From the IMG/VR virus record IMGVR_UViG_3300033232_000039, positions 10,277-74,276 of that record: 64,000 bases of DNA; one strand, written 5' to 3'. The notes below the pieces were generated by a model that was given only the letters and a program-made list of their open reading frames with translations, ran no database searches and was not told the origin of the DNA. This document shows positions 6,648 to 54,537 of this stretch, piece by piece. Source of the stretch: a virus. How positions within the stretch are numbered: the stretch's first letter is position 1; each line of letters opens with the position of its first letter. Both the position numbers and the translations under genes were made by a program.

Positions 6648-6823
6648 GCTGCTGCGCTCACTGTTTCTTTCAGTTTGTCAAAATTAGTAAGTACAAACAA
6701 ATAATCCGGTTCGCTCAAGCCAGTAGCTCGACGCGCATTGGGATCAAACATGTTGTATTTACCTGTTACTTTGATTTTTTCATAAGCATGGAATGCTTTG
6801 ATGTCTTTTTCTGTAAATTTCAT
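6644..6823 (-). CDS. Hypothetical protein (DUF5049-like)
   Basis: YEKIKVTGKYNMFDP motif; start at 6823 overlaps the DNA polymerase stop. Confidence 0.5.
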   Translation of the reverse strand: MKFTEKDIKAFHAYEKIKVTGKYNMFDPNARRATGLSEPDYLFVLTNFDKLKETVSAAA

Positions 6824-19346: not shown

Positions 19347-19399
19347 GCTAGTCTCCAAAAAAGTTAAGTTATAGCAGTGTAGAATCCACTACTTTGTTT

Positions 19400-33699: not shown

Positions 33700-36084
33700 A
33701 TGGGTTTATTTAGTAGTAAGTACAAGACTACTGTTGGTACAACAGTCTCCAGAACAATCCAAGATAGTACTATTATTTCATCTGTAAAAACAGGGGTAAT
33801 TACTGGACTATTCAGTGATAATTCAGATCAATTGGTGGAAAACATTATTGAAAGTACAATTAATGGTCTTGGTATTAAAGCTGAACGCATGTTCTCTTAT
33901 GCTAAACATAATTACCCATATGGATTACCGAGTGCTAAAGTGTCCACCACGGCTGATGGAAAATCTGTTGTTCTTGGTGTGATAGCGTCTCTGACTAATC
34001 AGAACATAGAAGAAGATTACTATCACTTTGGCCCATTGAACTCTTTACATGCTGGTTGGACAACGCTGTTCAACAGCTTTGGTTATAAATCTAATACTAA
34101 TGAAATTAGTACTTTATCTAACCAGATTGGTTATCCGGTTTATCTAAAAGACATGGTAGTAGTTGTCAAGGAAGATACTTTGACTATACGAGCCAAGGGT
34201 TCTTTAGATCTATGGGGAACAGCGGCAAGGGCAGGATATACGCCAGAACGTAAAACAATATCAAGTAGTGCACTTAAAAGTATGCTACCTACTCCAGTAC
34301 GTGTAGCACCAGATACTATTAATGATTATGTTGAAGTTACTTATGTTTGGGAAGTTCCGACAGTAATAGTAATTACTCCAGAAGTAACTACTGTTGTTAA
34401 TGGTGTATCCAGAATTACGCCTGCACAAACAGTTATCAGGAATGTAATTCATGAAGCCAGCATGAGTATCTTGTTGTCATCTTTCAATGCAGAACAGGAT
34501 TACTTTCATGTAAAGTACATAAACGGGAACCAAGAAGGTTATTGGCTTTATCAATTAGGTGAGGGAACTTACCCGGAGATTGATGTCATATTCAACGTAA
34601 CCCCCATACCAGAAGGCCAATTCTTTCCTGTAGTGTATTTCCGTAATGGTTCTAAATCTATGGCGAGTGATAAGGAGTCTGCAATCTATAAAGCATCCAA
34701 GCGTATGACCAAGATGCTGGGTATTAACTATCTGGACATCATTGATGCTATTCATCAAAATCCAGATATTGCTCAAATTGAGCAAGCCATGATGATGTTT
34801 GCAGTACCGGCAAATACAACAAACCAAATGGAACAACGCTACTTATTTGATTTCTTTAACAAACTGAATATTGCAGCAGGGGGTGTAGGTGTAGATCCTG
34901 GTTGGAACATTAGCAGGATACTACCAACTACAGAAGACTCGATTAACTTTAATACTTTACCTATGCAAATAGCATGGGGATATCTTGAAAATAAAAATAA
35001 AATAAGTAATATTCGTATTGAAATTGCTGATGCTGTATTCAATAAGGCACTTAGCTGTGAAGGTATTTTCAAGCGTAAAAAAGCAGGTGTTATTGCAGCA
35101 GTAGGAGACTATGCCAGTAGTTTTACAAAAGAAACAATAACTGGAAAATATACTACTCAAGAAAGAGTTTATGATAATTCAGGGGAAGATAGTAGCCTTA
35201 TTAATGTAGAACACACATACTCAGTTCCTATGGATGTCTTTATTTATAAACACCAGGTATCTGACGCTGTTTATGAAGAGATTATTGTTTATGACTTGAA
35301 AATGACCTATTACATGTGGGGGGGTTACTCTACAGTAGGCAATGATCTTGATGCCATTCTATTAATTCCTATTGATCATGCTATTACTAAAGAATATAGT
35401 ATTCAAGACAGAGAAGAACTTTTTGCAAGATCACTTCATTATATTTTTAATAGCAGAGTAGTTACTGAAGTTAAGTGGTATCAACAGGGTTGGTTCGCTG
35501 CTTTAATAACAGTTATTGCTGTAGTTATTACTGTTGTATCCTGGGGGGGTGCTTCTGGTATTTCAGCAGCGTTAGTTGCTGCTGTAGCGTCTATTGAAGC
35601 TTTTGTTATGTTTGTTGCTATGGGCTTACTCAATATGCTCATATTCGAGGTATTTAAACTATTTGTAGCAATGATCAGTCCAGAATTGGCTTTTATTATT
35701 GCTATTGTCGCTCTTGCATATGGCGCATACACAGGATTTCAAGCAGGTTCTATCAAGGGTGCACCTTGGGCAAAAGAATTGCTGGCAATATCAACTAATT
35801 TAACTAAAGCTATTCAAGCTAATATAGCTGAGTCTATGACTGGACTCAATAAAGAATATGACGAGTTTAAGTTGCTTGCTGCAAAGAAGTCAAAGTTACT
35901 GGAAGATAATAGTAAACTATTAGAGCAAAATAATTACTTAAGTCCGTTTGAGTTTGTGAAAGAAACCCCCACAGACTTATACAATAGGACTATACACTCC
36001 GGTAATGTTGGAGTTTTAAGTATTAGCGCAATTTCCTCATATGTGGATACCGCCCTCACATTGCCTGAACAGGTTCAATTCTAG
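33700..36084 (+). CDS. N4 gp53-like protein
   Basis: 794 aa; MGLFSSK start; hydrophobic C-terminal block after KWYQQGWF; synteny. Confidence 0.7.
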   Translation: MGLFSSKYKTTVGTTVSRTIQDSTIISSVKTGVITGLFSDNSDQLVENIIESTINGLGIKAERMFSYAKHNYPYGLPSAKVSTTADGKSVVLGVIASLTNQNIEEDYYHFGPLNSLHAGWTTLFNSFGYKSNTNEISTLSNQIGYPVYLKDMVVVVKEDTLTIRAKGSLDLWGTAARAGYTPERKTISSSALKSMLPTPVRVAPDTINDYVEVTYVWEVPTVIVITPEVTTVVNGVSRITPAQTVIRNVIHEASMSILLSSFNAEQDYFHVKYINGNQEGYWLYQLGEGTYPEIDVIFNVTPIPEGQFFPVVYFRNGSKSMASDKESAIYKASKRMTKMLGINYLDIIDAIHQNPDIAQIEQAMMMFAVPANTTNQMEQRYLFDFFNKLNIAAGGVGVDPGWNISRILPTTEDSINFNTLPMQIAWGYLENKNKISNIRIEIADAVFNKALSCEGIFKRKKAGVIAAVGDYASSFTKETITGKYTTQERVYDNSGEDSSLINVEHTYSVPMDVFIYKHQVSDAVYEEIIVYDLKMTYYMWGGYSTVGNDLDAILLIPIDHAITKEYSIQDREELFARSLHYIFNSRVVTEVKWYQQGWFAALITVIAVVITVVSWGGASGISAALVAAVASIEAFVMFVAMGLLNMLIFEVFKLFVAMISPELAFIIAIVALAYGAYTGFQAGSIKGAPWAKELLAISTNLTKAIQANIAESMTGLNKEYDEFKLLAAKKSKLLEDNSKLLEQNNYLSPFEFVKETPTDLYNRTIHSGNVGVLSISAISSYVDTALTLPEQVQF

Positions 36085-36093
36085 GAGAATCAT

Positions 36094-36579
36094 ATGAATT
36101 ATGCAGATTGGTTACGGTCACAACAACAACAGCTAGGTAGTCCAATGCTATCAGCAAATAATCTTGGTGCATTTAGTTCGATGGGCAATTACATGCAACA
36201 ACCCCAAGCACCAGAAATGTTCAGTAATGCCCCTGCAGCGATGGACTGGACTAAGGGTGCTTCAGCTAATATAGGAAAAGGGGGTTTCACTGGTGCGGGG
36301 CTTGCACCCAAAAGTATGTGGGATGGTTTTGGTGCTAACTCTATTCTGGATGGTTTGAAGTCTGGTGTTGGCGCATATCTTGCTTATGGACAACTTAAGA
36401 ATGCCAAGCAATCTCTTGCATTTCAAAAAGACGCTTTTAGCAAGAACTTTGCTATGCAAGGCGCTACGTTGGGTCGATCTATGCAGGATCGTATTGATTC
36501 ACGTAATAACAGTACAACGCAGGCAGGCTACCGTTCTCCTAAGGATTACATGGCTGGTTTTAACAAGGCAATGGGATGA
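36094..36579 (+). CDS. Putative ejection protein (N4 gp52-like)
   Basis: 161 aa; Gly/Ala/Gln-rich, no Cys; upstream of vRNAP. Confidence 0.65.
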   Translation: MNYADWLRSQQQQLGSPMLSANNLGAFSSMGNYMQQPQAPEMFSNAPAAMDWTKGASANIGKGGFTGAGLAPKSMWDGFGANSILDGLKSGVGAYLAYGQLKNAKQSLAFQKDAFSKNFAMQGATLGRSMQDRIDSRNNSTTQAGYRSPKDYMAGFNKAMG

Positions 36580-38021
36580 GTATTATTCGTTGGGACAATA
36601 TTGCCGCCCCACAATTAGGCAATCCTGGTATGGAAATGGCTTCTGCACGAGAAGGCTTTATGAAGTCTCTGGATACAGCAGGAAAAGTATTCACGGACAG
36701 AGATACTAAGCTGGCTGATCAAGCCAAGCAAAGCTATCTTGATGCAGTGGGTGGTGCCCAGACTCCTGAACAACTGGCAGAAATGCAGAAATCAGGTTTC
36801 CTGACACAGATATTCCAAAGTCTTGATCCTAAGACGCGTGGTTTGGTACGTGGTGCTGAAGAAGCCAAACTGGGATCATTGCAGCAGCAAGTTACTGCAG
36901 GTAATACCTATACAGATGCATTGGATAAGCGTGCTCAAGAACCCTTGGTTCAATCATTCAATGCCAAGCTTGCCGGTGGCAATTTTGCTGGGGCTGAGGC
37001 TGAGATTGGTGGTTTGAAAGATCAAGCTGCCGCCATTCTTGCTTTGAAACAGGCACGTGCTACAGAAACCGCAGAAGCTAATGCTGCAGCACTGGCTCCC
37101 GGTGCACAAGCCAATGCTGTGTTAAAACAACAACAGGAGACTTTGACATTAAATAATGCCAGAAAAGCGGCTACTGATAGTGCTGAAGTTGCTGATATAA
37201 CCTCTGTTATTGATAAACGACTCATTGATCATACGTCTCAAATAGAGCAAAGTAAGCTAGCACTCGGCAGTATGCTTGCTGAAAGCAATAAGTTTGCTGG
37301 TATTGCCGGGACTGCAGCCAAGATTCCATTGGATGCAGCAGGAATGCCTGACGTTGAAAACATGACAAATGCCCAGAAAACACAAGTTAATCTACAAGCT
37401 AAAGCTCAAGGACTTCCTTCACTGAATGAGCTATTTGAAGGGGACACTAAAGTCAGGAACAACCTGTATAAAGAATTGGTTACCTCTGGCGTATATTCTC
37501 CAGCCGCTTTGACTGCTGGTATGACACGGTTGAATACACTTAATACAGCTAATCAAGGTGCATCTATTGGTAATGATGCCACGATTAGTATGATTAATGA
37601 TGCCAAAGAGACAGTGGTTCAGGAAGAAGAAGCAAAAACAAACTGGTACACACCAGGAAGTTCTAATGCCATGACTGCCTACGATAGCTTATCAACCAAA
37701 GTTAGTAGTATGTTTAAAAATACTGACATGACTGAGGATGAGCCAGATATTCAAGCTATGCTCTATCGGATAGCTTCCGAAGGGGTGGAATATGCACCGG
37801 GAAAGTTTATTATGCCTTCTGAACAAGATATTATTGGTGCAATTCATGGGCAAATGGGAAAAAATAATTTGTTCAATAATTCTAGATCAGAGGATATTCT
37901 GTCAGATATCAAACGCATGTTGAATAAGCCTGCCATTCAGCGCAAGATTGCCAAGGCTGAGGATAATCAAGTGTATCAACGTAGAAAGGCATTAAAAGAC
38001 TTACTATCTCCTAAGAAGTAG
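36576..38021 (+). CDS. Putative ejection protein (N4 gp51-like)
   Basis: 481 aa; Ala/Gln-rich helical, no Cys; immediately upstream of vRNAP. Confidence 0.65.
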   Translation: MSIIRWDNIAAPQLGNPGMEMASAREGFMKSLDTAGKVFTDRDTKLADQAKQSYLDAVGGAQTPEQLAEMQKSGFLTQIFQSLDPKTRGLVRGAEEAKLGSLQQQVTAGNTYTDALDKRAQEPLVQSFNAKLAGGNFAGAEAEIGGLKDQAAAILALKQARATETAEANAAALAPGAQANAVLKQQQETLTLNNARKAATDSAEVADITSVIDKRLIDHTSQIEQSKLALGSMLAESNKFAGIAGTAAKIPLDAAGMPDVENMTNAQKTQVNLQAKAQGLPSLNELFEGDTKVRNNLYKELVTSGVYSPAALTAGMTRLNTLNTANQGASIGNDATISMINDAKETVVQEEEAKTNWYTPGSSNAMTAYDSLSTKVSSMFKNTDMTEDEPDIQAMLYRIASEGVEYAPGKFIMPSEQDIIGAIHGQMGKNNLFNNSRSEDILSDIKRMLNKPAIQRKIAKAEDNQVYQRRKALKDLLSPKK

Positions 38022-38104: not shown

Positions 38105-41100
38105 ATGACTACTGAATATCAAGATTACTTTGCTGCACGTATTGATCCAGCTAATGCTTACTGGAATCCGTTATCGGGTAATCAAAAATTTGCTGATCTA
38201 CAGCAAGCCAGTAAAGATAAAGCAAATGAATTACGCCTTATGGCTTCACAACGTGAAGCTGCCATCAAAGCACAACAAGCAGAACCAGATAGTCTGGTAG
38301 AGATGGTCGGGCTAGACCCGGAAGGTGTAACAGGTGGTGCAGTTAATCTTGCTGCTCGTGGTTTGGCGGGTTTCTCAAAGAATATCATCGGTCAGATTGC
38401 AGCGGCACCTACTGCTTTGTCTGCTGCTACTTATGCAGGTCAGTTTGATGATAAGTTTACCGAGGCTTATAAACGACATGTTAATAAACAAGCCACGCCA
38501 GAAGATACAGCATATCTAAACCAAAAAGGTACCAATAGTAATCCTGAAGACATGACTCGGCTAGAGGCATTTGGGAATTACACGCAACGATCTGATAATG
38601 CTCAGATGATCCGTAAGTTGTTTGATATTAACTATCTGACATACAAGGGTAATACGGATAAGCTGGATGAACAAATTGGTGCAGGTTTTGACAAACCCTG
38701 GGAACAGATGAAATCTGGCTGGTCTGCTCTGACCAAAGGTCAGGGTACTGATGCAGGGTTAAAAGATATTACAGTTGGTTTCGCTGAATTGTTATACAAC
38801 GGTGCAGAAGCTGCTGTAGATAACCCAATGGCTACGACAGAGTATGTCGTAGAAAACTTGCCTAACTTATTGCTAGGAGCATCCGGTAAAGCAGGCGCTG
38901 CATTACTGGGTGCTACTAATGTTGGCTATGCTGCTGACACGTATCAACAGGGTCTGGATAAGTACAAAGCAGACAATAACGGTGCCATCCCATCAACCGA
39001 AGTGCGTATGAGCATGGCTACTCATGCTGCTTCATTGGCTTTGGCAGAACAATTGGGTGAAGCCATTACAGTTGCCAAAATGTTTCCTGGCAAAGTTGCT
39101 GCAAAAATGGCAGGTAAGCCTGCCAAAGATATAGCAGCTACATCTGCTGAAACGGCAAAAAGAGTAGGCTTCAAAAAAGCACTATTGAACAGTGCTATTG
39201 CAACATCAGAATCTACTGCTGTAGAGGCAGCAACTGAGGGCTATCAAACCTATGCAGAAGGCGAAATCCTGGCTGACCCAGCCTCTGCCAAGGACATTTA
39301 TAAAAGCTCTGTAATTGGTGGTTTGGTGGGTGGTGGTTTGGTTAGTGCTACACGTACACCACAAGAACTGCTAAATGTAAGTCATGCTCCTAAGATTGCA
39401 CCTGTGGATGCAACAGAGGAATTCAAGACAGCGGTCACATCAGGAAACATTAAATCACTGTTGGATCCTAAAAGCAAAAGCTATGCACCAGGTCAGGCCG
39501 TTACTGCTTTGTATGAACATAGTAAACAAGCAGGTACTTCAGAAGAAGTTAAAGCTGATAACCTGACCCAGGCTAACAAAATTATTGTTGATCTGGAAAC
39601 CCGTAAGTCTGCCATTGAAGCAAGCTTGACTCCAGTGACCTCTGCAGCCGTTGTCGAGATGCAGACCCAAGTGGTTGATTTGAAGAAGCAAATAGCTGAT
39701 CCAGCCAACACTGACAAAGTTCCTGCCATGCAGGAAATGGTTGGTTTGCTAGAGGAAGAGATTGCTGCTGGGATTACAAATAAGCCTGCGTCACCAGCAT
39801 TACAAAAAGAATTGGTAACGCTTGACCAACAGCTTGATGAAGCACGTAAAAGCAAGACGTTGTTAACTCAATTGGTGACATCAAAGGTGTCTATAGATAA
39901 CCAAATTGCCATTATCAACACACCTGTTGCTAAAGACGATACCAAGGCTCAAGCTACAACCCATGCTGCTATAGCTTCATTGATTGCGCTGTCTATCAGT
40001 ACCCCAGAGCGTCTGGATCCTAAAGTGGCTATCCAGATAGCCAACGATACAAAAAACGCACTACAGCCCCAACAACGAGACTATCTAAGAGCATTCTCTG
40101 ACGCACGCCTTGCAGCTAACGCACTTGAGTCTGTGGAATCTGTTGGTGACATGATTGCCAATGGTTCTGCTGATGGAAAACATATGGGGATTTCTACATA
40201 CCGTAGAAATATGGCTGAAGCAGTACAAGCAAATAACGTAGTTATGGCGGATATGGATTTGGCAGATTTGAGAGCGTTTGCTGCCGATCATCAAGATAAG
40301 TGGGCTGTAGCTAAAGAAGCAGCCAAACGTGGCAAGAATACCGTGGTTGTAAAAGTTAAAGATGGTGGCTGGAAAATTGCAAGTGTTGATGATTTGAGTA
40401 ATCCTGATTTAAACAGGAATGGGTCATTCAAGACCAATTCAGCAGAATTCATCAACAAGATTGGTACTGAAGCTGCTGCACTTACAGCCACATTGAAAGA
40501 ACTTGAAGCAGTCTATGAACTGACCTTTAACCAAAAACCTGGAGTTACTGATGGCAAAGACGTATCGAAACCAACCGCAAGAGTTAAAGCATCTACACAA
40601 AGCACAGCAACCCCGCAAGCAAAAGGAGCTGGAACAACTGGAACTGTTCCCGCTGTATCAGGAGATGGAACAACTGGAACCCAGTCTGTTAAACCTGCTG
40701 CCAGCAACACAGAGAAAGCGGTTAGTGTAGTCAACACTCCCAAAGAACGTGTACAAAAAACAGAGAAATCTATACAGGTCGCACAGGCTGCTGCTCCTAT
40801 AGTAGAAGATCATCTCACAGCAACACCTGATGAGTATGAAGAAGCTGTGCGTGTTAGTGAATCTAACAACGAAGACGACTATGATAGTATTCCTGACCAT
40901 ATTGCTAAATTAGTTGTAGCACTGCGTGATGGTGTAAAGATCAATGTCATTTCCTCCAGAGAAAGCAAAGGAACAATCACTACTGAAAGTAAAACAGCAG
41001 TTGGCATTGTTGCGACTGAACCAAAAGTTGTTGGCAACCAAATCAGTACTGAAGAGACTCAAGATACGGATGGAAATCAGGAAGTTACAGAAGTAGCTGA

Positions 41101-44100
41101 GACTGGTGGCCTAACCAACATGGCTATCAAGTCAGAAGAAGGTGCTACTTACATCACAGCCAATTTGTTGGCAGATAACTTCACGCAGCGTACAGAGAAA
41201 GAATCTGATACTTCGGTAATGCCGTTAGTAGCAATTAAAAACTTCTACTCTTCATTTAAAGACAACATTGCTGGTGTTACTGCTTACTTAGCCAATAAAA
41301 CCATGACAGATGCACAGACTGCCGCTGTTACATCGTTCTTTAAGCATGTTGGTGACTGGTCTGCCACTATTCGGGGTAATTTGAAAGCGCAGGGCAATCA
41401 AGACTATAAGTACACTGACATGATGGGTTACTTGTTAGTAACCCATGAAGATGGTATGCCTGACTTAGATGAAAATGTCAAAGTTGCTATTGCCCATGCT
41501 GCTTATAGTTGGGCAGCAGGTGCTGTTACATCACCAAGATTCCTGAAAGACTCTGCTATTAATGCTCTTTTAGGCCGGGGTAAAGATACCCGAGTTGGTT
41601 ATGTAGCCAAAAGCAAAATGCGTGAATTGGGAACATCCCAGAACCAATTAGTTGAATCTTTGGGTGGTGTGGTGTTGGCAAGTCTTGGTTTGAAAGCTAA
41701 ACCGGATGCCTCACAAGAACAAGCAGCCAAACTTCAAATGGCTTTAGGTAGTCATGTACTCAAGTTGCTGGAAGACACGAATATGGTTCGACGTACCTCC
41801 TTGTCTGATCTGGATATGCGTAACTTCCGCGAAGAGGGTTTATCAGACACACAGATCATTGCAATTAATAAAAAGTTGGGGGTCAAGCCGCTAACTACAG
41901 ATACGCAGCGTACATCTGCCAAGAGAGCAATGAATGTATTTTTCTCTTTGCGGCGTGATGGTGAAGGCAACTTAACCCCTACTGTGCAAAATATCTTTGA
42001 TGCAGTCAAAGGTACACAGGGTATTTTGAACAAGATATTTCAGACTGAAAGTAGTATTAGCATTCCGTCACTGAAGCCAATTACTACAGTACAAAGTACT
42101 ACAGCAGGCACTAACCAAAATGTACCCAGTGTACTAAAGAAATCAATTCTGATTGCACAGTCCCGGCCTCGCCGGGTAGATACTGTCAAGCTGGCTTTGT
42201 TGGATACTTTCAGTGAAGCAGAACAACATGCCATGATTGGTGTGGAAGAAGAATCTAATGACTTGGTGCATAAGGTCAATCGCCATACCGTTGAAGCCAA
42301 GAATGCAGGATTGATTCGTGACTATAACAACTTCCTTGAATACGTAGGCGAGTACCTAGCAACCGGCCCAATGGGAATGGCTACAGAATTCTTTCTGAAG
42401 TATTCCCCCTGGAAAATGCAGCGTGTTGGTATCGAGACTCGGGCGGTTAATCCACAAACCAGTAAAACAGTGCGATTTTTGATTAATTCTCCTAAATGGG
42501 AAAGCAAGATCAAGAGTGATGATGCCAAGCTGATGAACAGCTTTTATCTGCGTGTAGCAGAAGGTATCAGTATGAAGACTGAGCGTGCTGATAACCAGGT
42601 ATCCATCGACTTGGTAATGCAAGCAATGACAGAACCTGTGTATGCCAAGGCAATTGCAGCTCTACGTAAGAGTATTATTGACAAGGCTGAATTGACTTCT
42701 GAAGAGAAAGCTAATGTACTTGCTGGTGTTAAGGCAGGTGGTGCTAACTTGCACACATTAGATGTGCTGGTTGGTATGGCTTATCAGCAAAATGCTGAAA
42801 CCAAGGCAGAAGGTCAAGTCTATGAGTTCACAGTCAATATGATGGGTGAAGTTGACGGGGTGGCTAATGGAACCATGCTAAATCATGTTTTATTGGGTGC
42901 TGGTAGCTCTCTTAAAGCTTTGCAAAGTTTCATGAACATGGGGGGTTTCTTTGAGAAAGGCAGTCCCTTTAGCCAGTACAACCAGTATCGAGGAACTGAG
43001 GGTAATCTTGATGTGTATGAGACAACAGCACGTCGTATCTATACTGCCATGACTGCCTGGTCAAGCAACAGCACCGAAAATGCAGGTACTGCTAATAGCA
43101 TCTGGGCTATTGCTGGTGACATATTTGACAAAACCAAGGGCACAGTAACCAAGGATGGGCGTAATCTTGTTAAAGATGCGCTTAATCCTCTTGGATTTGG
43201 TTCTTCCTTGGAGAACATTGTTAATGGTATGTCTGATGCCTTTCTTGCCAGTGTTTACAAGGGCATTGAAAAGATGTCCAAGCAGGGTGATCGGGTATCT
43301 CAAGCAGAGGTCAACGCCTACGTTGCCAATATCAATAACTTGATAAGTGAAAAGAACCAGATCCCTACGGATATGACCATCACTCAACTGATGGAATACA
43401 CCATACCTTCCCGAGCAGAGTCTGATATTAAAACGACATTTTCCAATACAGTTGGAAAACAGGTTATAGCTGTAGTAGAACAAGATTTTGCTATATTTAT
43501 TGAGCGCAGAGACGCGCTAACCAAGACTTCTCAGATTACTTTTGACTTGTATAACGCAGTCTATACAGGCATGCGTGAAGCATATCTTGAAGAACTCATT
43601 TCTGCTAAAGAAATCCCGCTCAATGCGAAGGGTGAGCGTATTGGTGATATGTCTAAAAAGCATGAAGCTGAGTTTGCCAAGCGTATAAAAAACATTGCAC
43701 CTGTCATCAATACGCATATGTCTAATCAAGACAATGACACAGATAGCGGCATGTTTATGGGCAAGTCTGTTAAATCTGTAAGTACAGACACGGTGTATCA
43801 GAATAGTACCAAGTTTGGTAAAGCACTTAAAACGGGTGCTGCATCCATGATGGTCAGAGGCTACATGAATAAGCTCATGAGTCCTGGTGTTGCCATGATG
43901 TCTGCTACAACACACTCGACTGATTCTTCTATTGTCAATAAGACACAGGAAGACTTGGATATCTTGGCAATCCATGATGCAGCAGGCAGTGGTGTGGCTA
44001 ATTTGGATGAGACAGCTACAGCCATGAACCGTAATACATGGGATTCCTTACTGAATTATTCCCCTTTGGGGGAAGTTTACTTGTCATTATCTCGTGTAAT

Positions 44101-47100
44101 GTCCGGTATTGATACCATGATGACTGAAGAAACCTTGTCACCACAAGCACTTGCTAATCTACAGGAATGGGCACGTAATCAAGCACGGGTTATGCAAAGC
44201 AAACCGGAAATGGTATTTACCACACTCTTGGGTAATGCCTTGGCAGCGGCTAATGAAGCTAATAACATGAAATATCAATTCATGGCTGCACTGGCTTCTC
44301 TTGATCAGTATGCATACCAAGGAGGTAATCATATTGTTACTGATGCCAATATCAAAGACGCACAAAAATTACTTGATGCTGGCCCAATTGTGCTGTCTGA
44401 GCAAGAGTCTGCTGTATTAAGTCGTCTTAGTGAGTTCAGCAAAGCTAAACATAAACAAACCAAAATAACGCAAGTAGCACAAGTAGAAGCTGAAGAAGAA
44501 ACCGTAAATGAAGCGATTGATGATTCTTATGACGAAATGGGTATGCCACCTGAAATGGACGATAGCTGGGATCTGGGTGATAACTACGGTACACCTACCA
44601 AGCCCCAATTTGGTGGCATAGGTGCATCTATTCATGGTGTCAAGAATGACAAGACCTTGATTGCTGCACTGGCAGCAAAGCCTGTTATGCCAGCCAAAGA
44701 AGCTCTGAAGCTAGCCTATGCGTCATTGGCTACTTCGGTCAAAGATCCGGTAATGCGTAAGTTCTATCAAGCCCTGATTACACGCATGACCCCGTTGTTG
44801 TCGCCAGAGACACGCGTTCACTATGTTACCCAAAATACACCCGAGGAAATTTTACAGAATTTGCCTGATGTTGTTGGTTTGGCAGCTTGGTATGACACAG
44901 GTTTGGACGATGTGTTTGTGGTTGGTGCTGAATATAAAGCCTCATTGATTGACGGTGAAACTATTGTGCATGAACTGTTGCACAGTATTCTGTCGCATAT
45001 TATTAGTGCTGAACAGGAAAAACAGAAGGGCAACCCCAAATACAAGAGTCCTGCACTTGATATGATCAATAATTTGGAGTCCTTGCGTACTGCGGCTAAT
45101 GAATATGCCCAGAACAATTTGACTGAAAAAGAACAACAAGACTTTGCACCTGGTTTGAGTGACCTGCATGAATTGCTATCATACGGTTTAACCAATGAAG
45201 CCTTTCAACAAAAAGTTTTGAGTAAAGTTCAAGTTAAGTCAAGCACGCTGGTTAACACCATCATCACTGGTTTGAAAGAGTTCTATGATGTTATTACTCA
45301 AATGGTATTCTCAGGAATACCGAAAGAACAAATAGCAGGCTATTCTTCTGGAATGGCTGTTCTGTTGGAAAGTAGTGCAGGTTTGTTTGATGCTTTGCAA
45401 AACAACCCAAAAGAGAACAAAGCAAAGCAATTGCTTTTGCCTATGATTCCTAGTAGTCCATTAGCTAAAGTTAATGAATATAGTACTTTGGATATATATA
45501 ACGCACTGAGTGATGGTGGCATATCAAAAGACTTTGATAACCATTTGCAAACAGTTTTAAGCACAATCACAAGCAAACTATTTGGTGCGTTCGATAGCTT
45601 TAAAGCTACATTACTCGAACAGCAAGCTTTATCGCCTACAGATGTCTGGGTTAAGGCACTAGATACAGGTATTGCACCTTTTGCTTCAGAAGCTTTGCTT
45701 TCAGGTTTTGATATCAACAAACAGGAAGCATTTGGTATTGAAATGATTGAAGCCACTGTACGTGCATCATTGGAAGACAATGAAGCACAGAGTAAGCTAA
45801 CTTATCGTGAATTGTCCAAGCTGTATGATGAAACCTACACTCGCTTGAAAGTTTCTGACTTTCATACAGATCCCGTTAAAGCGCAAAGCTTGTATGATTT
45901 TATTTTTAAAATCGAAACAGGAACAGAAAATAGTCGGCTTGACTATCTTGCTAGATTTGCTGCAATGGGTTTAGCGCATGAAGGTTTCAACAAGATGTTG
46001 AAAGTAGCCACCAAGATTGATGATTTTGGTTTAGATAAAGACATTACGATCACAGATCGTCTGTATAAGCTCTTTGAAAACATTGTGGAATTCTTCCATA
46101 ACAAAGTTACTGGTACCTATAAAGGCCAACAAGCTGATGCAAAGCTTAAAGCTTTAGTAGGTCTGCTGATTGATGTTGAAGCCAAGAAACGCTTTGAGAT
46201 TGCCCAAAAAGCTAACAGCAAAAGCATATTCGACCCATTGGAGAATGGAATAAAACTGGCTGTTGAGAAGATGAAAGCTACTGTCTTGGCAGTTACCGAT
46301 TCCAATATAGTGTCAAAAAGCAGCAATAAGACTGTGCGTGCTTTGGGTAGTATGACCAAATCTGTTGTGAATGATCAGGTTGGTTTAATGATGGAGGGTA
46401 TTTTGAATCTTCGAGATATTCACCATAAAGATGAATACGGCTTAATTGCTGGTACTCTTAATAATCTTAAAGGCCCGTTGGCCTCATTCCAGACATTATT
46501 GCGTGCTTCCAAGAAGAATGAGGGTGATCGTATGGACGTAATGACCACTTCGGCCAAGACCGTATTGGGTATGTTTGTTAACAAAGGTACCAAACTGTCC
46601 AAGGAAGCCAAAGAAAGCATTACTCGTGTGTTTATTCGTACTGGTGCACATAACCTAGTGGATTACTTCAGTATGGCAGAGATTGAAAAAGCTTTGACTG
46701 ATAAAGCTGTGATGTCTGCTGCACAAGCTAAGCTTGAAGATGAATTGACTAAATTTGGGAAGCTTAAACCTTACTTTATTGCACAAGCAAATGCTTTGGC
46801 TTATGTTGTAGCAACCGGTGCTGCACGTAAGGGACAAATCATGCTGAATGCACATAACATTGCCACTTTACACGGAACAGCATATACCAAGAAGATTACC
46901 CCAGCAGACAGCAAAAAAGCCGAACCCATTATTGCGGCGCTGGTTTCCTTGTATGCAATGGCTTACTCAGAGCCTTCAGTCATGGCTTTGGCAGCCAAGA
47001 CATTGAACGCAGAGAACGCACGACAAGACGGTAGTAATGGTGTGGAATTTGCGATGAAGCTCCATAGACATATGGAAGCAGAGTCTAAGGATAAGTTGTT

Positions 47101-48988
47101 TGGTAACAATGCTACCCTCATGATTCATGGCTACACAATGGACATGATCAATAGCGCAACAGATATCCAAACCGTGAATGAAGAAGACGGCAAGGAGCTA
47201 ATGAATCTTGGTTACAAGAAGAAAGGCCGTGTTGGCTTAGACCCTGCAGACCCAGATCGAGAAACAAAGCATGTTTATGTCATGCGGGATGGTGGTAGAA
47301 CACGCAGAGTTTCAGGAGCCTTTTCATTTACAAGTAAAAATTCCCGAGGTTCAGAAAAGCACAATGGCTATCTGAACCCCTACACCGTAGATGGATTGGA
47401 AAACGTACAACAAAATGCAGCCATTGCACAGCAACGACAAGCAGAAATTGCAAGCATGTTTGTAGCAGGCCCACGAGAAGACTTGTCTAAAGCTAAAGGC
47501 AATCACATGGTGCCTGTCCTGAATGAGTCAGGTAAGATTGTTAAATGGCGTTATTTGATGGCAGATATCACCAAGGACATTTATCTTGAACGGGATAATC
47601 GTTTTGATAAGGTATTGGGTACCCTGGCGGGATCAATTTACGATAAGCAATCCAGTAGAGTACAAAACGAACAAATCGTAATGGCTTTAAAAGAGCAAGC
47701 TAATATAGATTACAAGAATCGTCCAGCTTCGTATGTATCAATTGGCCCTAAAAGCCCTGATACCAAGATGCGTGAAATATGGGATCTATTACCACAAGAC
47801 ACAAAAGAGGATACTCGTAAAATCTGGGGTAGTGATGAAATGCTTGTGTCTAAAGATGCTTTGGATTTGCTGTTTGGCTACCGTAAACTATCCTTAGCAG
47901 ATATGTATCATAAAGATCCTGCAACAAGAAATATGATTGAAAAAATCATTATGCATGTCTTAGACTTCAACTTAGAAGTTTATGGCCGTATCCGGCATGG
48001 TTTGTCTCGTAAAGAAGCAAAAGATTACTCCAAACGTGCTGCTATTGCCATTACTCGTTCAGAACGTGCCTGGCAAGAACTTGTGTCTGAAACTAAAGAT
48101 ATTATTGTAGTGAAGTCGGGTCTGGTGATGTTTGGTAATATTTACAGCAACATGTCTTTGCTTTATGCAAATGGTGTGCCTATAAAAGATATATACCATC
48201 ATCACATCATTGCGTGGCGTGGTGCCAAAGCTTATGACATAGATTCAGCTAAACTGATGGAGCTTGAGATGACCTTGGCAACCAGTAGTCAAGTAAAAGT
48301 CATTGCTGATACTCAGAGACAAATAAAAATTGTTAAGGATGCTATAGCACGCAATCCAGTCAAAGAATTGATGGATGCTGGTTTGATGCCTACTATTGTG
48401 GAAGACCTAAACCCAGAAGATGATCTGTACTCTTATAAAAGTGCATTAGCTCGTAAATTTGAGAAGTACACCAGTAAGCTACCTACTTCTGTGATAAAGA
48501 CAGGTAAGTTTCTATATATGTCTCATGATAGTAAGCTATACCAGGGTTTGCGGGATGTTACCCAGCTATCCGATTTTGTTGCACGATATACACTGTATCA
48601 ACACCTAACCAATAAGAAAAACTCAATTACTAAGGCAGAAGCCATTCAGAAAGCAAGTGATAGCTTCATTAACTACGACATACCAATGCATCGTACTTTA
48701 CAGTACAGTGATGATATGGGCTTTACCATGTTTACCAAGTATTTCCTAGGTATTCAACGCGTGCTTGGTACATTGTTCCGTGAACATCCCGGACGTGTGC
48801 TGTCTATGATTGGTCTGGATCAAGTAATGAATATGGGTGCACTTGTCTTAGATGGTTCAGCATTGACTCGAATTGGTAATATCCCCTTTACAGAAGGTGC
48901 CTTCCGCTATCCATCTACGCTAGGTCAGTTAGCTACAGTAAATTCATCTGTTGGATTGATGAATATGCTTACTCCTATAGGTAACTAA
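38105..48988 (+). CDS. Virion-encapsidated RNA polymerase (N4 gp50-like vRNAP)
   Basis: 3,627 aa; no Cys seen; motif A EVDGVANG (D1584), motif B RNLVKDALNPLGFGS (K1690), motif C IHDA (D1958). Confidence 0.96.
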   Translation: MTTEYQDYFAARIDPANAYWNPLSGNQKFADLQQASKDKANELRLMASQREAAIKAQQAEPDSLVEMVGLDPEGVTGGAVNLAARGLAGFSKNIIGQIAAAPTALSAATYAGQFDDKFTEAYKRHVNKQATPEDTAYLNQKGTNSNPEDMTRLEAFGNYTQRSDNAQMIRKLFDINYLTYKGNTDKLDEQIGAGFDKPWEQMKSGWSALTKGQGTDAGLKDITVGFAELLYNGAEAAVDNPMATTEYVVENLPNLLLGASGKAGAALLGATNVGYAADTYQQGLDKYKADNNGAIPSTEVRMSMATHAASLALAEQLGEAITVAKMFPGKVAAKMAGKPAKDIAATSAETAKRVGFKKALLNSAIATSESTAVEAATEGYQTYAEGEILADPASAKDIYKSSVIGGLVGGGLVSATRTPQELLNVSHAPKIAPVDATEEFKTAVTSGNIKSLLDPKSKSYAPGQAVTALYEHSKQAGTSEEVKADNLTQANKIIVDLETRKSAIEASLTPVTSAAVVEMQTQVVDLKKQIADPANTDKVPAMQEMVGLLEEEIAAGITNKPASPALQKELVTLDQQLDEARKSKTLLTQLVTSKVSIDNQIAIINTPVAKDDTKAQATTHAAIASLIALSISTPERLDPKVAIQIANDTKNALQPQQRDYLRAFSDARLAANALESVESVGDMIANGSADGKHMGISTYRRNMAEAVQANNVVMADMDLADLRAFAADHQDKWAVAKEAAKRGKNTVVVKVKDGGWKIASVDDLSNPDLNRNGSFKTNSAEFINKIGTEAAALTATLKELEAVYELTFNQKPGVTDGKDVSKPTARVKASTQSTATPQAKGAGTTGTVPAVSGDGTTGTQSVKPAASNTEKAVSVVNTPKERVQKTEKSIQVAQAAAPIVEDHLTATPDEYEEAVRVSESNNEDDYDSIPDHIAKLVVALRDGVKINVISSRESKGTITTESKTAVGIVATEPKVVGNQISTEETQDTDGNQEVTEVAETGGLTNMAIKSEEGATYITANLLADNFTQRTEKESDTSVMPLVAIKNFYSSFKDNIAGVTAYLANKTMTDAQTAAVTSFFKHVGDWSATIRGNLKAQGNQDYKYTDMMGYLLVTHEDGMPDLDENVKVAIAHAAYSWAAGAVTSPRFLKDSAINALLGRGKDTRVGYVAKSKMRELGTSQNQLVESLGGVVLASLGLKAKPDASQEQAAKLQMALGSHVLKLLEDTNMVRRTSLSDLDMRNFREEGLSDTQIIAINKKLGVKPLTTDTQRTSAKRAMNVFFSLRRDGEGNLTPTVQNIFDAVKGTQGILNKIFQTESSISIPSLKPITTVQSTTAGTNQNVPSVLKKSILIAQSRPRRVDTVKLALLDTFSEAEQHAMIGVEEESNDLVHKVNRHTVEAKNAGLIRDYNNFLEYVGEYLATGPMGMATEFFLKYSPWKMQRVGIETRAVNPQTSKTVRFLINSPKWESKIKSDDAKLMNSFYLRVAEGISMKTERADNQVSIDLVMQAMTEPVYAKAIAALRKSIIDKAELTSEEKANVLAGVKAGGANLHTLDVLVGMAYQQNAETKAEGQVYEFTVNMMGEVDGVANGTMLNHVLLGAGSSLKALQSFMNMGGFFEKGSPFSQYNQYRGTEGNLDVYETTARRIYTAMTAWSSNSTENAGTANSIWAIAGDIFDKTKGTVTKDGRNLVKDALNPLGFGSSLENIVNGMSDAFLASVYKGIEKMSKQGDRVSQAEVNAYVANINNLISEKNQIPTDMTITQLMEYTIPSRAESDIKTTFSNTVGKQVIAVVEQDFAIFIERRDALTKTSQITFDLYNAVYTGMREAYLEELISAKEIPLNAKGERIGDMSKKHEAEFAKRIKNIAPVINTHMSNQDNDTDSGMFMGKSVKSVSTDTVYQNSTKFGKALKTGAASMMVRGYMNKLMSPGVAMMSATTHSTDSSIVNKTQEDLDILAIHDAAGSGVANLDETATAMNRNTWDSLLNYSPLGEVYLSLSRVMSGIDTMMTEETLSPQALANLQEWARNQARVMQSKPEMVFTTLLGNALAAANEANNMKYQFMAALASLDQYAYQGGNHIVTDANIKDAQKLLDAGPIVLSEQESAVLSRLSEFSKAKHKQTKITQVAQVEAEEETVNEAIDDSYDEMGMPPEMDDSWDLGDNYGTPTKPQFGGIGASIHGVKNDKTLIAALAAKPVMPAKEALKLAYASLATSVKDPVMRKFYQALITRMTPLLSPETRVHYVTQNTPEEILQNLPDVVGLAAWYDTGLDDVFVVGAEYKASLIDGETIVHELLHSILSHIISAEQEKQKGNPKYKSPALDMINNLESLRTAANEYAQNNLTEKEQQDFAPGLSDLHELLSYGLTNEAFQQKVLSKVQVKSSTLVNTIITGLKEFYDVITQMVFSGIPKEQIAGYSSGMAVLLESSAGLFDALQNNPKENKAKQLLLPMIPSSPLAKVNEYSTLDIYNALSDGGISKDFDNHLQTVLSTITSKLFGAFDSFKATLLEQQALSPTDVWVKALDTGIAPFASEALLSGFDINKQEAFGIEMIEATVRASLEDNEAQSKLTYRELSKLYDETYTRLKVSDFHTDPVKAQSLYDFIFKIETGTENSRLDYLARFAAMGLAHEGFNKMLKVATKIDDFGLDKDITITDRLYKLFENIVEFFHNKVTGTYKGQQADAKLKALVGLLIDVEAKKRFEIAQKANSKSIFDPLENGIKLAVEKMKATVLAVTDSNIVSKSSNKTVRALGSMTKSVVNDQVGLMMEGILNLRDIHHKDEYGLIAGTLNNLKGPLASFQTLLRASKKNEGDRMDVMTTSAKTVLGMFVNKGTKLSKEAKESITRVFIRTGAHNLVDYFSMAEIEKALTDKAVMSAAQAKLEDELTKFGKLKPYFIAQANALAYVVATGAARKGQIMLNAHNIATLHGTAYTKKITPADSKKAEPIIAALVSLYAMAYSEPSVMALAAKTLNAENARQDGSNGVEFAMKLHRHMEAESKDKLFGNNATLMIHGYTMDMINSATDIQTVNEEDGKELMNLGYKKKGRVGLDPADPDRETKHVYVMRDGGRTRRVSGAFSFTSKNSRGSEKHNGYLNPYTVDGLENVQQNAAIAQQRQAEIASMFVAGPREDLSKAKGNHMVPVLNESGKIVKWRYLMADITKDIYLERDNRFDKVLGTLAGSIYDKQSSRVQNEQIVMALKEQANIDYKNRPASYVSIGPKSPDTKMREIWDLLPQDTKEDTRKIWGSDEMLVSKDALDLLFGYRKLSLADMYHKDPATRNMIEKIIMHVLDFNLEVYGRIRHGLSRKEAKDYSKRAAIAITRSERAWQELVSETKDIIVVKSGLVMFGNIYSNMSLLYANGVPIKDIYHHHIIAWRGAKAYDIDSAKLMELEMTLATSSQVKVIADTQRQIKIVKDAIARNPVKELMDAGLMPTIVEDLNPEDDLYSYKSALARKFEKYTSKLPTSVIKTGKFLYMSHDSKLYQGLRDVTQLSDFVARYTLYQHLTNKKNSITKAEAIQKASDSFINYDIPMHRTLQYSDDMGFTMFTKYFLGIQRVLGTLFREHPGRVLSMIGLDQVMNMGALVLDGSALTRIGNIPFTEGAFRYPSTLGQLATVNSSVGLMNMLTPIGN

Positions 48989-52392: not shown

Positions 52393-54537
52393 TTAAGGGC
52401 GTTTGCCGATAGCTTTCATGGTAGATACCATTACTGTTGACATTACCTCCATTTCTGAAAGCTTGTCAGGCATCTTGTCATTTAAGCCAAGAACTCTGGA
52501 ACGGATATTCTCGAAGTCAAAGCCTGCATCAACCAGAATCAAGGCATAACGTAACAACATGTTGTTACGGTTACCATCACCTGAGTTATTCAAGACCCAG
52601 CGTTCCAAGTTATCCATAGATTGCTGTGAATCAACGAGAATTTTTCTCTCTTCGTTCTTGCTGGTTTTGGGGATGAAAGGCAAGACATCCAGTACTTCCC
52701 CCTCGTTGTACTCATAGCTGCCATCATGTGACAACCATTTACGGGCACGCTGATTAGTAGCAGTATCCACATCAAACGGTAACCATGAATAAATGTTGCT
52801 CATGAACTCTTTATAGTCCTTGGGATCCATTTCCAATGTATAGTTAATTGGCAGAATGATCCTGAATCGGTTTTCATCTTCAGTATGGCGCTTGGTGGTG
52901 TACATCAAGTACTTGTAGTTCTTGAGTAGCATCTTGGCGGTGCTCATGGCTACGCCACCATCCACGTCAATAACAACCAGATTGAATCCAGGAATGCAAT
53001 TCTCTTCGTTTCTGTATCCACCAGATAAATGGTGTGCTGTCCAGTGGAGTCCTGGTGCTTGGGTCAACTTATGAAGTTTGTCAAAGGGTGCGTACTCATT
53101 TCTGTAGTCCGTGGTTATGTCTGTACTGTAAGCAATGACCATTTTTGTTAGGTCAGTTTCTTTTAGTGTTTCACCACGTAAAAACTCAATACCATCAGAA
53201 AAAGATTTCTTGATGATGATGTTGTTTTTATAACCATAAGCAATAGCCAGTGAAAGCATCTCTGCTTTCTGTGCAGTACCCCCTTTGTAAAAAGGCAAGT
53301 CTTGAACCATGTCAGCTTGGGTAATGTCACGTTTGATTGTGGCAATGTACTTAGCCAACTTGACCCAGTTACTATCACGGGTCAACATACGACCAAAGGC
53401 AGCACCAGATTCTTCAGCCAGTTTAATGGCATAGTACAAATGCTGTTCAGTTAATTCAGGTGAGTCATCAATAAATGCATAAGCACCTGCCAGTTTCAAA
53501 GCCTTGAAGTAACGGTGAGAAATTTCCGCCTTTTTCATTTCGTCATACTGGGTGTAATAGGAGGCTTCCTTTTCACATTTCAGTTTGTACTCAATGAGTA
53601 GCAGACTTGTTTCTTTGCTCATAATGAGCTTCTTGTTGACATTGATGATGTCAGCCAAGTTGCCCAAATGATCAGACAGTTCTTCCATAACAGTAGAACT
53701 ACTTTGATCTGTCAGCAAGTCATAGATTTCTTCTGGTGTACGGGTATTGTCGCCTTGCTGATGCTGGCTATAACCAAAGAAACAGCGCCGTGCATATCCT
53801 GTTTCCAGCAATGCATACAACTCTTCCTCAGTCTTACCACCGTTAAGCAAGCTTGCTGGTGTGCCAAATAACATCATGTTAGATGGTGTCTTACCAACGA
53901 TCTCTTCTTTGCGGGTGTTATCTGCCGTACTCAGCTTGAGCTTGTCTTCAACTAAGCCTACGTCATACAACTCCAGAAAGACACCCAAAGCATCTTTAGC
54001 TTCAGCTAAGTTCAAACCAATCTCATCAATTTGCAGATTAAGTGCACCTGCGTCACACATGAGTAGCTTATGCCGCAATACCTTGACTGCAGGTACGGTA
54101 GCCTGGTTAAAGCTGAACATTAATGGGCCAATGCTTTCAAACTCCTTGGTAACACGGATCAGTTCTTCATCTGGATCCGTGTTCTTGCGATTAGCTCGTT
54201 TAATAGCCAATTTAGGCAAGTTCTGTTCAGCCAGAGTTAAAAAGGTTTCATCCATAAACCGTTGACGGAACTGATTGATCACGTCATGTTTGATAATGTT
54301 AGTGGAGTAACCTTTACCAGAGCCTGATGTACTCAGGTTCAAGGCAAACATGTTAACGGGGATTTCACCCCGATCATGAGTCAAAATCTTACAGCGCATG
54401 GTTGAAGCTACAACACTGAAGTAATAACCCACCAATACTCGAAAGAAAAGCGGATTGTCGTTCTGTACTTTATCGCACAGAATTTTGACCAGTTTCTCCG
54501 AAGTAGGGTGGTAATCCATTTGGTCGAATGAAAGCAT
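52393..54537 (-). CDS. Primase/helicase-like replication protein (N4 gp43-like)
   Basis: 714 aa; STSGSGKG P-loop, IDEIG; C-terminal AEP-like VIDVDG, TTKRH, RFRIILP, GNRNNMLLRYA. Confidence 0.85.
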   Translation of the reverse strand: MLSFDQMDYHPTSEKLVKILCDKVQNDNPLFFRVLVGYYFSVVASTMRCKILTHDRGEIPVNMFALNLSTSGSGKGYSTNIIKHDVINQFRQRFMDETFLTLAEQNLPKLAIKRANRKNTDPDEELIRVTKEFESIGPLMFSFNQATVPAVKVLRHKLLMCDAGALNLQIDEIGLNLAEAKDALGVFLELYDVGLVEDKLKLSTADNTRKEEIVGKTPSNMMLFGTPASLLNGGKTEEELYALLETGYARRCFFGYSQHQQGDNTRTPEEIYDLLTDQSSSTVMEELSDHLGNLADIINVNKKLIMSKETSLLLIEYKLKCEKEASYYTQYDEMKKAEISHRYFKALKLAGAYAFIDDSPELTEQHLYYAIKLAEESGAAFGRMLTRDSNWVKLAKYIATIKRDITQADMVQDLPFYKGGTAQKAEMLSLAIAYGYKNNIIIKKSFSDGIEFLRGETLKETDLTKMVIAYSTDITTDYRNEYAPFDKLHKLTQAPGLHWTAHHLSGGYRNEENCIPGFNLVVIDVDGGVAMSTAKMLLKNYKYLMYTTKRHTEDENRFRIILPINYTLEMDPKDYKEFMSNIYSWLPFDVDTATNQRARKWLSHDGSYEYNEGEVLDVLPFIPKTSKNEERKILVDSQQSMDNLERWVLNNSGDGNRNNMLLRYALILVDAGFDFENIRSRVLGLNDKMPDKLSEMEVMSTVMVSTMKAIGKRP

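Follow-up and report, generated by a model that had tools for sequence, protein, structure and literature searches.

In T7 RNA polymerase (RNAP), the hydroxyl of Y639 bonds the 2'-OH of the ribose, H784 and G542 also join in ribose discrimination, and with the H784A substitution transcription no longer terminates prematurely once a modified nucleotide has been incorporated (PMC4551944; PMC11617373). Discrimination is lowered in the engineered T7 Y639F and Syn5 Y564F enzymes, which accept 2'-deoxy or 2'-fluoro substrates (PMC4538805). The virion RNA polymerase (vRNAP) of coliphage N4, gp50, known from its mini-vRNAP (PDB 2PO4, 3C2P, 3C3L, 3C46, 3Q22 and others), has Tyr678 at the position of T7 Y639 and neither His nor Gln at the site equivalent to H784 (MTIGTGDGMM), and thus keeps two of the three residues of the T7 ribose gate, namely Tyr and Gly. 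A "Y678F substitution" was recorded in Pseudomonas N4-like phages by Ceyssens et al. 2010, Virology 405:26 (PMC3715699). The giant vRNAPs of LUZ7, LIT1 and PEV2 (Migulavirinae) and of Littlefix have Phe at the N4 Y678 position (motif B of LIT1, RNVIKKPLTAMMFGS; of LUZ7, RKVIKQPLTAMMFGS), and the Pseudomonas phage enzymes carry His where T7 has H784 (ATHAGDS, ATHALDS). The Phe-type LUZ7 produces abundant primary early transcripts in vivo and has nine early promoters, most with an N4-like hairpin (PMC9163698).

The window, a stretch of 64,000 nucleotides of viral DNA, was found to encode an enzyme of the same kind, with the following features.

38105-48988, plus strand: vRNAP gene encoding 3627 amino acids, matched by phrog_2206, with 0 Cys.
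41165-44377, plus strand: mini-vRNAP-like polymerase domain, residues about 1021-2091, delimited by AlphaFold2 and Foldseek.
42455-42475, plus strand: QTSKTVR, putative T/DxxGR-type motif (K1454, R1457), recognized by conservation.
42854-42871, plus strand: motif A, DGVANG (D1584, G1589), equivalents of T7 D537 and G542, by BLASTP and hhalign.
43160-43204, plus strand: motif B, RNLVKDALNPLGFGS, residues 1686-1700 (R1686, K1690, F1698), with the F1698 codon TTT at 43196-43198.
43910-43930, plus strand: THSTDSS with H1937 (CAC, 43913-43915), equivalent of T7 H784 in VHSQDGS.
43973-43978, plus strand: motif C, H1957-D1958, equivalents of T7 H811-D812, by hhalign to T7 IHDS.
17186-18424, minus strand: RNAP II large subunit, phrog_2051 (E = 9.3e-155).
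17999-18043, minus strand: motif B of that subunit, RADAKRALMTSMYGS.
18438-19358, minus strand: RNAP II small subunit, phrog_2166 "N4-like RNA polymerase" (E = 2.4e-96).
52393-54537: primase, phrog_2135.

Profile searches revealed that the phrog_2206 "virion RNA polymerase" family covers residues 91-3609 of the window protein (E = 0), a near end-to-end match for a single polypeptide of the giant size (~3500 aa) typical of this family, and a profile built on the window vRNAP in turn matched the full-length N4 vRNAP structures in three stretches (E = 5.5e-157). The absence of Cys, previously ascribed to N4 vRNAP (PMC3821669), extends over all 3627 residues of the window protein, as it does over N4 gp50, and 217 of 235 vRNAP homologues likewise contain none. 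An AlphaFold2 model of residues 1001-2200, run with 22 sequences, reached a mean pLDDT of 82.7 and a pTM of 0.81 and was confident across model residues 21 to about 1091. Its best PDB matches in Foldseek were all N4 mini-vRNAP/gp50 chains (3c46, 3c3l, 3c2p, 2po4; E = 7e-36 to 6e-34, TM 0.66-0.75, over about 1090 residues), followed by T7 RNAP (1cez_A, E = 1.3e-12) and by the mitochondrial RNAPs of yeast and human (E about 1e-11 to 1e-10), so that the right-hand fold common to T7 and mitochondrial RNAPs is present. The genome context is also of the N4 type, with genes for a two-subunit RNAP II, and with the portal gene (phrog_1216) and a phrog_2220 gene adjoining the vRNAP gene. The window gene is accordingly an N4-like (Schitoviridae) virion RNA polymerase, sharing with the N4 enzyme its architecture, its fold and, apart from the Tyr of motif B, its catalytic motifs, at a structure-based identity of about 15%.

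Since a Pfam search of the vRNAP at E up to 1 returned only two weak unrelated matches, with PF00940 absent, its kinship to T7-like RNAPs is visible by structure and profile only. With the 1200-aa polymerase region as query, phmmer gave no match among PDB sequences, and BLASTP between the window vRNAP and N4 aligned motif A alone (EVDGVANG on EADGVTNG); homology of motif B was therefore established by profile alignment through intermediates. By hmmalign, N4 gp50 RGIAK(1667)NPLTITIY(1675)GS is matched to the window motif B in every column, and K1667 and Y1675, minus 997, are K670 and Y678 of the mini-vRNAP. In an hhalign comparison with a joint T7 RNAP and RNAP II profile, the window motif B falls on T7 RSVTKRSVMTLAYGS, pairing F1698 with Y639, and motif A falls on T7 FDGSCSG. 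A profile of the full-length vRNAP family gave a probability of only 0.06 against T7 RNAP, whereas sub-region profiles did align; the local alignment (E = 1.3e-3) had its top per-column confidence at the THSTDSS motif and HD, and the global run, of low overall probability, served solely to set motifs A and B in register.

The original prediction had read Phe1698 at the T7 Y639/N4 Y678 position, and this was confirmed by translation (cgt aat ctt gtt aaa gat gcg ctt aat cct ctt gga ttt ggt tct) as well as by both alignments. Equally sound were its observations that the Phe lies 8 residues after the catalytic Lys1690, a spacing shared with the N4 and T7 enzymes, and that the phage's own RNAP II keeps the Tyr. 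The distance from the motif A Asp to the motif B Lys is 106 residues in the window (D1584 to K1690) and 111 in N4 (D1556 to K1667), and relative to the N4-style motif B, R-x3-K-x7-Y-G, the window differs at one residue, Phe for Tyr, at a position that is polymorphic in the family. The residues R1457, D1584, R1686, K1690, G1699 and D1958, all present in the window, are invariant or nearly so among 256 relatives: the catalytic D1584, G1589, the motif B Arg and Lys, and R1457 occur in 256/256 and K1454 in 254/256, and in motif C, among the 250 aligned vRNAPs, Asp occurs in all and His in 245. The QTSKTVR stretch would correspond to T/DxxGR, judging by its position and conservation.

The implied rarity of Phe, by contrast, proved wrong. 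In the 256 vRNAPs compared, a sample biased towards relatives of the query (the search gave the best 150 of 685 hits), the position of F1698 is occupied by Phe in 204, Tyr in 52 and no other residue, and Phe is thus the majority state as well as that of LIT1, LUZ7 and Littlefix. The alignment of motif B across vRNAPs, which had been proposed as a check, therefore went largely against the supposition of an unusual enzyme. In the FastTree phylogeny, the window vRNAP falls in a subclade of 57 (support 92), every one of them with Phe, and the enclosing clade (support 96), which includes LIT1, LUZ7 and Littlefix, has 238 members, 204 of them with Phe. At least 13 changes between Phe and Tyr, each of a single base, are required by this tree, and Phe went back to Tyr about a dozen times within the 238-member clade. 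A further 80 IMG/VR loci, used for counts outside the tree and contributing few new switches, have Phe in 69. The Asp after the catalytic Lys, where N4 has Asn, was correctly noted by the original prediction; it carries no special meaning, as this position is highly variable (T 94, D 37, G 31, K 22, Q 17, N 16), and it was rejected as a compensating residue. The window Phe is consequently an inherited family trait and not a special adaptation of the window phage, of a kind known since 2010 and normal in a large branch of the family. New here are the at least 13 switches between Phe and Tyr, the constancy of Tyr in RNAP II, the coupling of Phe to His and the invariance of G1589.

Within the clade, the Pseudomonas phage vRNAPs belong to a different subclade from the window and have about 28-30% identity to it in the polymerase domain; their motif B is of the type K-K/Q-P-L-T-A-M, whereas that of the window is K-D-A-L-N-P-L, and these phages, unlike the uncultured phage of the window, are in culture and have known hosts. 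The engineered T7 Y639F and Syn5 Y564F carry the same substitution as the window at the homologous residue. They are, however, laboratory-made, 98-kDa, promoter-specific enzymes acting on double-stranded DNA templates, whereas the window vRNAP is a natural variant, a 3627-aa enzyme that is presumably injected and uses hairpin promoters, and the likeness to Y639F is an analogy.

The column of H1937 was picked up when raw frequencies were scanned for residues enriched among Phe-type enzymes, its link to T7 H784 being made afterwards. Of the 204 Phe-type vRNAPs, 202 have His there, as against 15 of the 52 Tyr-type; the remaining enzymes are two with Phe and Gln (P0189 and P0207) and 37 with Tyr and a residue other than His. 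The additional IMG/VR loci comprise 67 with Phe and His, none with Phe and another residue, nine with Tyr and His, and two with Tyr and Gln. In a test that rests on parsimony and the FastTree topology, branches with a Phe background (108.8 length units) show two losses of His, and those with a Tyr or switching background (12.2 units) show five, the loss rate per unit length being about 20-fold greater in Tyr lineages (binomial tail 1.8e-4). His changed as well on five of the 13 switch branches, always concordantly. The conservative independent-pairs sign test for this coupling was not significant (median p 0.125, range 0.06-0.25; nine supported pairs, about four concordant and none discordant). 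A blind scan for compensating columns, covering 1095 columns and 13 Phe/Tyr contrasts, likewise yielded nothing beyond chance, its maximum of 8:0 being reached by 38% of random re-orientations, and its top columns, T1972, W1979 and E1949, were rejected as compensators for want of a clean pattern.

Of the three residues that form the T7 ribose gate (Tyr, His, Gly), the window keeps two, G1589 and H1937, with F1698 in place of Tyr. Judged from the aligned residues, the window vRNAP thus has, by natural descent, a sugar-gate genotype (Phe, His, Gly) identical to that of T7 Y639F. We consider it probable, taking the sugar-gate reading as a whole, that Phe is tolerated in the vRNAP family as long as the equivalents of H784 and G542 are kept. 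The aromatic ring would be the part under absolute constraint, with Phe or Tyr the only residues seen; it would stack on the nascent base pair and pack against the incoming nucleotide, and the hydroxyl, which in T7 forms a bond with the 2'-OH of an incoming rNTP, would be dispensable in the Phe branch while H1937 and G1589 are retained, H1937 being expected, by comparison with T7, to lie close to F1698. The earlier suggestion that the enzyme might use another sugar gate gains some support in this respect, as H1937 and G1589 are kept and His is near-obligatory with Phe. Much of the discrimination is lost in T7 Y639F although H784 is present, and His would therefore provide no more than a partial back-up. 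As rNTPs are in great excess over dNTPs in the cell, a normal early-gene RNA polymerase would be expected there. In vitro, a reduced sugar discrimination of the window vRNAP is plausible, with poorer rejection of dNTPs and small 2' substituents than by an F1698Y revertant, and bulky 2' groups would still be poorly handled because His is present.

A more specific proposal, which we advance tentatively and regard as somewhat doubtful, is that N4-like vRNAPs check the sugar with two sensors, either of which can be lost but not both: the hydroxyl of the motif B Tyr would act before insertion, and the His equivalent to H784 at or after insertion.

The principal alternative is that constraint on the position is simply relaxed, the Tyr hydroxyl being irrelevant to an enzyme that transcribes a few short early operons in an rNTP-rich cytoplasm, so that TTY and TAY codons drift uncompensated and the association with His mostly reflects shared ancestry. 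The frequent single-base switches fit such drift, as do sister sequences that, this residue apart, can agree throughout the 15 residues of motif B (RNVVKTTLTPLMFGS and RNVVKTTLTPLMYGS), the chance-level result of the blind scan, the non-significant sign test and the normal transcription of Phe-type LUZ7. Uncompensated drift, on the other hand, is at odds with the near absence of Phe without His (2/204, and 0/67 in the new loci), with the much faster loss of His in Tyr lineages and with the concordance of all joint changes. It also sits poorly with RNAP II, where Tyr was never lost, being present in 120/120 sequences (that of the window and 119 among the matches listed), and the loss of the hydroxyl is therefore specific to the virion enzyme. 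We thus consider relaxed constraint unlikely, though it is the strongest of the competing ones.

Far less probable is an adaptive loss of specificity, in which Phe would have been selected for dNMP incorporation, giving mixed RNA/DNA products or replication primers. N4 replication in vivo requires vRNAP, and N4 Y678F gains dNTP use; the behaviour of the T7 and Syn5 mutants described above favours such a role by analogy. Selection of this kind is nevertheless difficult to reconcile with the repeated Phe to Tyr reversions within the clade, or with the retention, in 99% of Phe enzymes, of the His that limits extension by T7 RNAP after modified nucleotides. The phage moreover has primase, DNA polymerase and ribonucleotide reductase genes of its own, and the early products of LUZ7 act as ordinary 5'-triphosphate RNA (PMC9163698). 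The idea that the window enzyme makes mixed products for priming thus found no support. That the Phe is an artefact, from a TAT codon misread as TTT or from misalignment at the Y639 position, has a negligible probability, given its presence in 204 independent sequences, in 69/80 IMG/VR loci and in all 57 nearest relatives, which makes sequencing error very unlikely, together with an R-x3-K-x7-aromatic-G-S register that is ungapped against N4 and T7 and a motif B that contains no other Tyr.

For a single locus the substitution is a small matter, and at the level of the family it becomes a testable question: a change of the Y639F type is present in hundreds of natural vRNAPs and is almost never joined with loss of the His equivalent to H784, a pattern that fits ribose discrimination in single-subunit RNAPs through partly redundant sensors. 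If the two-sensor proposal is true, Phe and His lineages such as that of the window would be natural enzymes of the T7 Y639F type, N4, with Tyr and no His, would be a natural H784A type, and P0189 and P0207, with Phe and Gln, would represent naturally occurring double mutants that accept the widest range of substrates. The value that had been suggested for the window vRNAP as a biotechnology enzyme is reasonable in itself and not specific to this phage; in the same event, the vRNAP family would already provide a set of polymerases that differ by degrees in how well they tolerate 2'-modified nucleotides. The natural enzymes with Phe and His, with Tyr without His, and with Phe and Gln are directly comparable, and might serve for the synthesis of 2'-modified RNA on single-stranded templates.

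The phage to which the window belongs is N4-like. Its gene for the giant injected virion RNA polymerase (vRNAP) is accompanied by a portal gene and by the features listed here.

38105-48988, + strand: vRNAP ORF, 3627 aa
43196-43198, + strand: TTT codon of F1698, the motif B Phe of the vRNAP
17186-18424 and 18438-19358, - strand: the two subunits of RNAP II (N4-like gene content)
52393-54537, - strand: primase (phrog_2135, E 0)
56007-57947, - strand: ribonucleotide reductase (phrog_367)
6820-9435, - strand: family A DNA polymerase (phrog_17)
36576-38021, + strand: 481-aa ORF immediately preceding the vRNAP gene, without PHROG match at E 1e-5
33700-36084: ORF adjoining the 481-aa ORF (phrog_2220, function unknown)

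Judged by position, the products of the last two ORFs may be ejection proteins. Residues 91-3609 of the vRNAP align with the virion RNA polymerase family of PHROG (E = 0). The protein contains no cysteine, as is also the case for N4 gp50 and 217 of 235 homologues. Its closest metagenomic relatives share about 50% identity with it, and cultured phages reach about 30% at best over the polymerase domain. A Pfam scan of the whole protein returned two weak unrelated matches only; the precomputed table of the protein collection gives PF21867 for the window vRNAP and PF21624 or PF21894 for relatives. For some homologues, 3559-4632 aa long, the precomputed table gives additional Pfam domains, namely PF13538, PF05970, PF13604 and PF13245 (P0033, P0054, P0090), PF13532 (P0086) and PF18760 (P0061, P0068), which suggests that enzymatic modules are fused to the injected polymerase in these proteins.

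Bases 43160-43204 of the + strand (cgt aat ctt gtt aaa gat gcg ctt aat cct ctt gga ttt ggt tct) translate to RNLVKDALNPLGFGS, residues 1686-1700 of the ORF, and the original prediction had set the Phe of this motif B at the T7 Y639 / N4 Y678 position. Direct sequence searches are too weak to place it there (phmmer of the polymerase region against PDB sequences gave no match, and BLASTP against N4 aligned motif A alone), but profile methods do so. With an HMM from 120 relatives, N4 RGIAK-NPLTITI-Y-GS matches the window motif column by column, N4 residues 1667 and 1675 being the K and Y of mini-vRNAP K670 and Y678. Searching with the family profile recovered N4 vRNAP structures (E 5.5e-157), among them 2PO4, whose residues 327-717 match at E 1.4e-38; hhalign, with T7 RNAP plus RNAP II as the target profile, aligned the motif with T7 RSVTKRSVMTLAYGS. 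In the AlphaFold2 model of residues 1001-2200 (pLDDT 82.7, pTM 0.81) model residue 697, immediately ahead of the Phe, is the last of a helix; the top structural matches of this model are N4 mini-vRNAP chains (TM 0.66-0.75, E ~1e-35), followed by T7 and mitochondrial RNAPs. None of the catalytic residues R1457, D1584, R1686, K1690 and D1958 is missing, and the family shows practically no variation at them. The profile alignments in both the N4 and T7 registers, the fold and the intact catalytic residues therefore confirm the Phe observation.

Its implied rarity was not borne out. Motif B was compared across 256 vRNAPs (235 drawn from two large protein searches, the other 21 being those of named phages; a sample skewed to relatives of the query), and the majority have Phe (204, against 52 with Tyr and none with another residue). 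Phe is found in the cultured Pseudomonas phages LIT1, LUZ7 and Littlefix, and Tyr in N4, Delftia RG-2014, Stenotrophomonas C121, Rhizobium Y2_6, Erwinia S6, Ruegeria V13, Roseovarius RPP1, Shigella B2, six Vibrio or Pseudoalteromonas phages, Pectobacterium CB4, Klebsiella P184, and Acinetobacter XC38 and At2. On the FastTree phylogeny, computed from a 517-column region after the F/Y column had been taken out and rooted on N4 as a drawing choice, the Tyr genera make up a grade, 204 Phe and 34 Tyr enzymes are united in a 238-member clade (support 96), and the window vRNAP lies inside an all-Phe subclade of 57 (support 92); F/Y changes number at least 13, irrespective of the root. Phe at motif B is not unusual but an ordinary lineage trait already in the literature, Ceyssens et al. 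(2010, PMC3715699) having recorded a "Y678F substitution" in Pseudomonas N4-like phage vRNAPs; the first reading is supported in part. Phe-type LUZ7 makes abundant primary early transcripts from nine early promoters, mostly with an N4-like hairpin (PMC9163698), so that a Phe-type vRNAP is a competent RNA polymerase in vivo.

Besides Y639, two residues of T7 are implicated in ribose discrimination, H784 and G542; H784A has been combined with Y639F as a remedy for termination after modified nucleotides (PMC4551944; PMC11617373). The THSTDSS motif of the window vRNAP contains H1937, which precedes motif C (H1957-D1958) by 21 residues, and local profile-profile alignment (E 1.3e-3), with its highest per-column confidence at both motifs, pairs H1937 with T7 H784 (VHSQDGS) and D1958 with D812; G1589, the G542 equivalent, is invariant in the family. 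With Phe alongside H1937 and G1589, the sugar-gate genotype is therefore that of T7 Y639F, whereas N4, with Tyr and without His, represents the complementary natural type.

Residues at the two positions are combined very unevenly. Among the 256 vRNAPs, 202 combine Phe with His, 2 Phe with Gln, 15 Tyr with His and 37 Tyr with a non-His residue (Gln in 27; Gly or Ile in N4 and close kin); Tyr or His is thus kept in 254/256, and having neither is nearly excluded. In 80 further IMG/VR loci the corresponding counts are 67, 0, 9 and 2 (both Gln), two more Phe-type loci that end ahead of the His site being left out. The two Phe-Gln enzymes, P0189 and P0207, would by genotype be natural Y639F/H784-loss double variants; P0189, at just 1131 aa, is as long as a stand-alone polymerase domain, and a Cys adjoins its H784-equivalent site. 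By parsimony on one quick tree, on which this rate test depends, two losses of His fall on 108.8 branch-length units of Phe background and five on 12.2 units in which the background is Tyr or switching (binomial tail 1.8e-4). His also changes on 5 of the 13 F/Y switch branches, in the concordant direction in 5/5. A conservative independent-pairs test, which cannot reach significance, gave about 4 concordant and 0 discordant of 9 pairs (median p 0.125). The His column was picked out by a raw-frequency scan made with a conserved histidine already in view, its link to T7 H784 being seen only afterwards, and in a blind search for compensation no column rose above chance. Set against these results, F/Y drift without compensation is a minority possibility that retains some weight. 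The family-wide Phe-His coupling, as read from these alignments, appears to be the only part with some novelty.

As originally claimed, RNAP II of the window phage keeps Tyr at motif B, and the residue is lineage-wide, in 120/120 large subunits (that of the window phage and those of the 119 relatives among the matches listed); hydroxyl loss is therefore specific to the virion enzyme. In the window's large subunit, HSID at residue 243 (the T7 H784 equivalent) precedes the IHDEF motif C at residue 349 by 106 residues, compared with 28 in T7, and an insertion of ~80 residues may be present in its palm.

Selection for dNMP incorporation, for priming, is very improbable, as Phe reverted repeatedly to Tyr, His is retained, the phage has its own primase and the RNA made by LUZ7 is ordinary. 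That the Phe is an artefact can be practically dismissed. We consider it reasonably probable, by analogy, that F1698 acts through its ring in a T7 Y639F-like gate: the ring would fill a conserved structural role at the O-helix tip, and the Tyr hydroxyl would be dispensable because H1937 and G1589 remain. Everything said here on selectivity is inferred from T7, Syn5 and N4 Y678F. In vitro, dNTPs and small 2' groups would be expected to be less well discriminated than by an F1698Y revertant; in the cell, the window vRNAP would be expected to transcribe normally.
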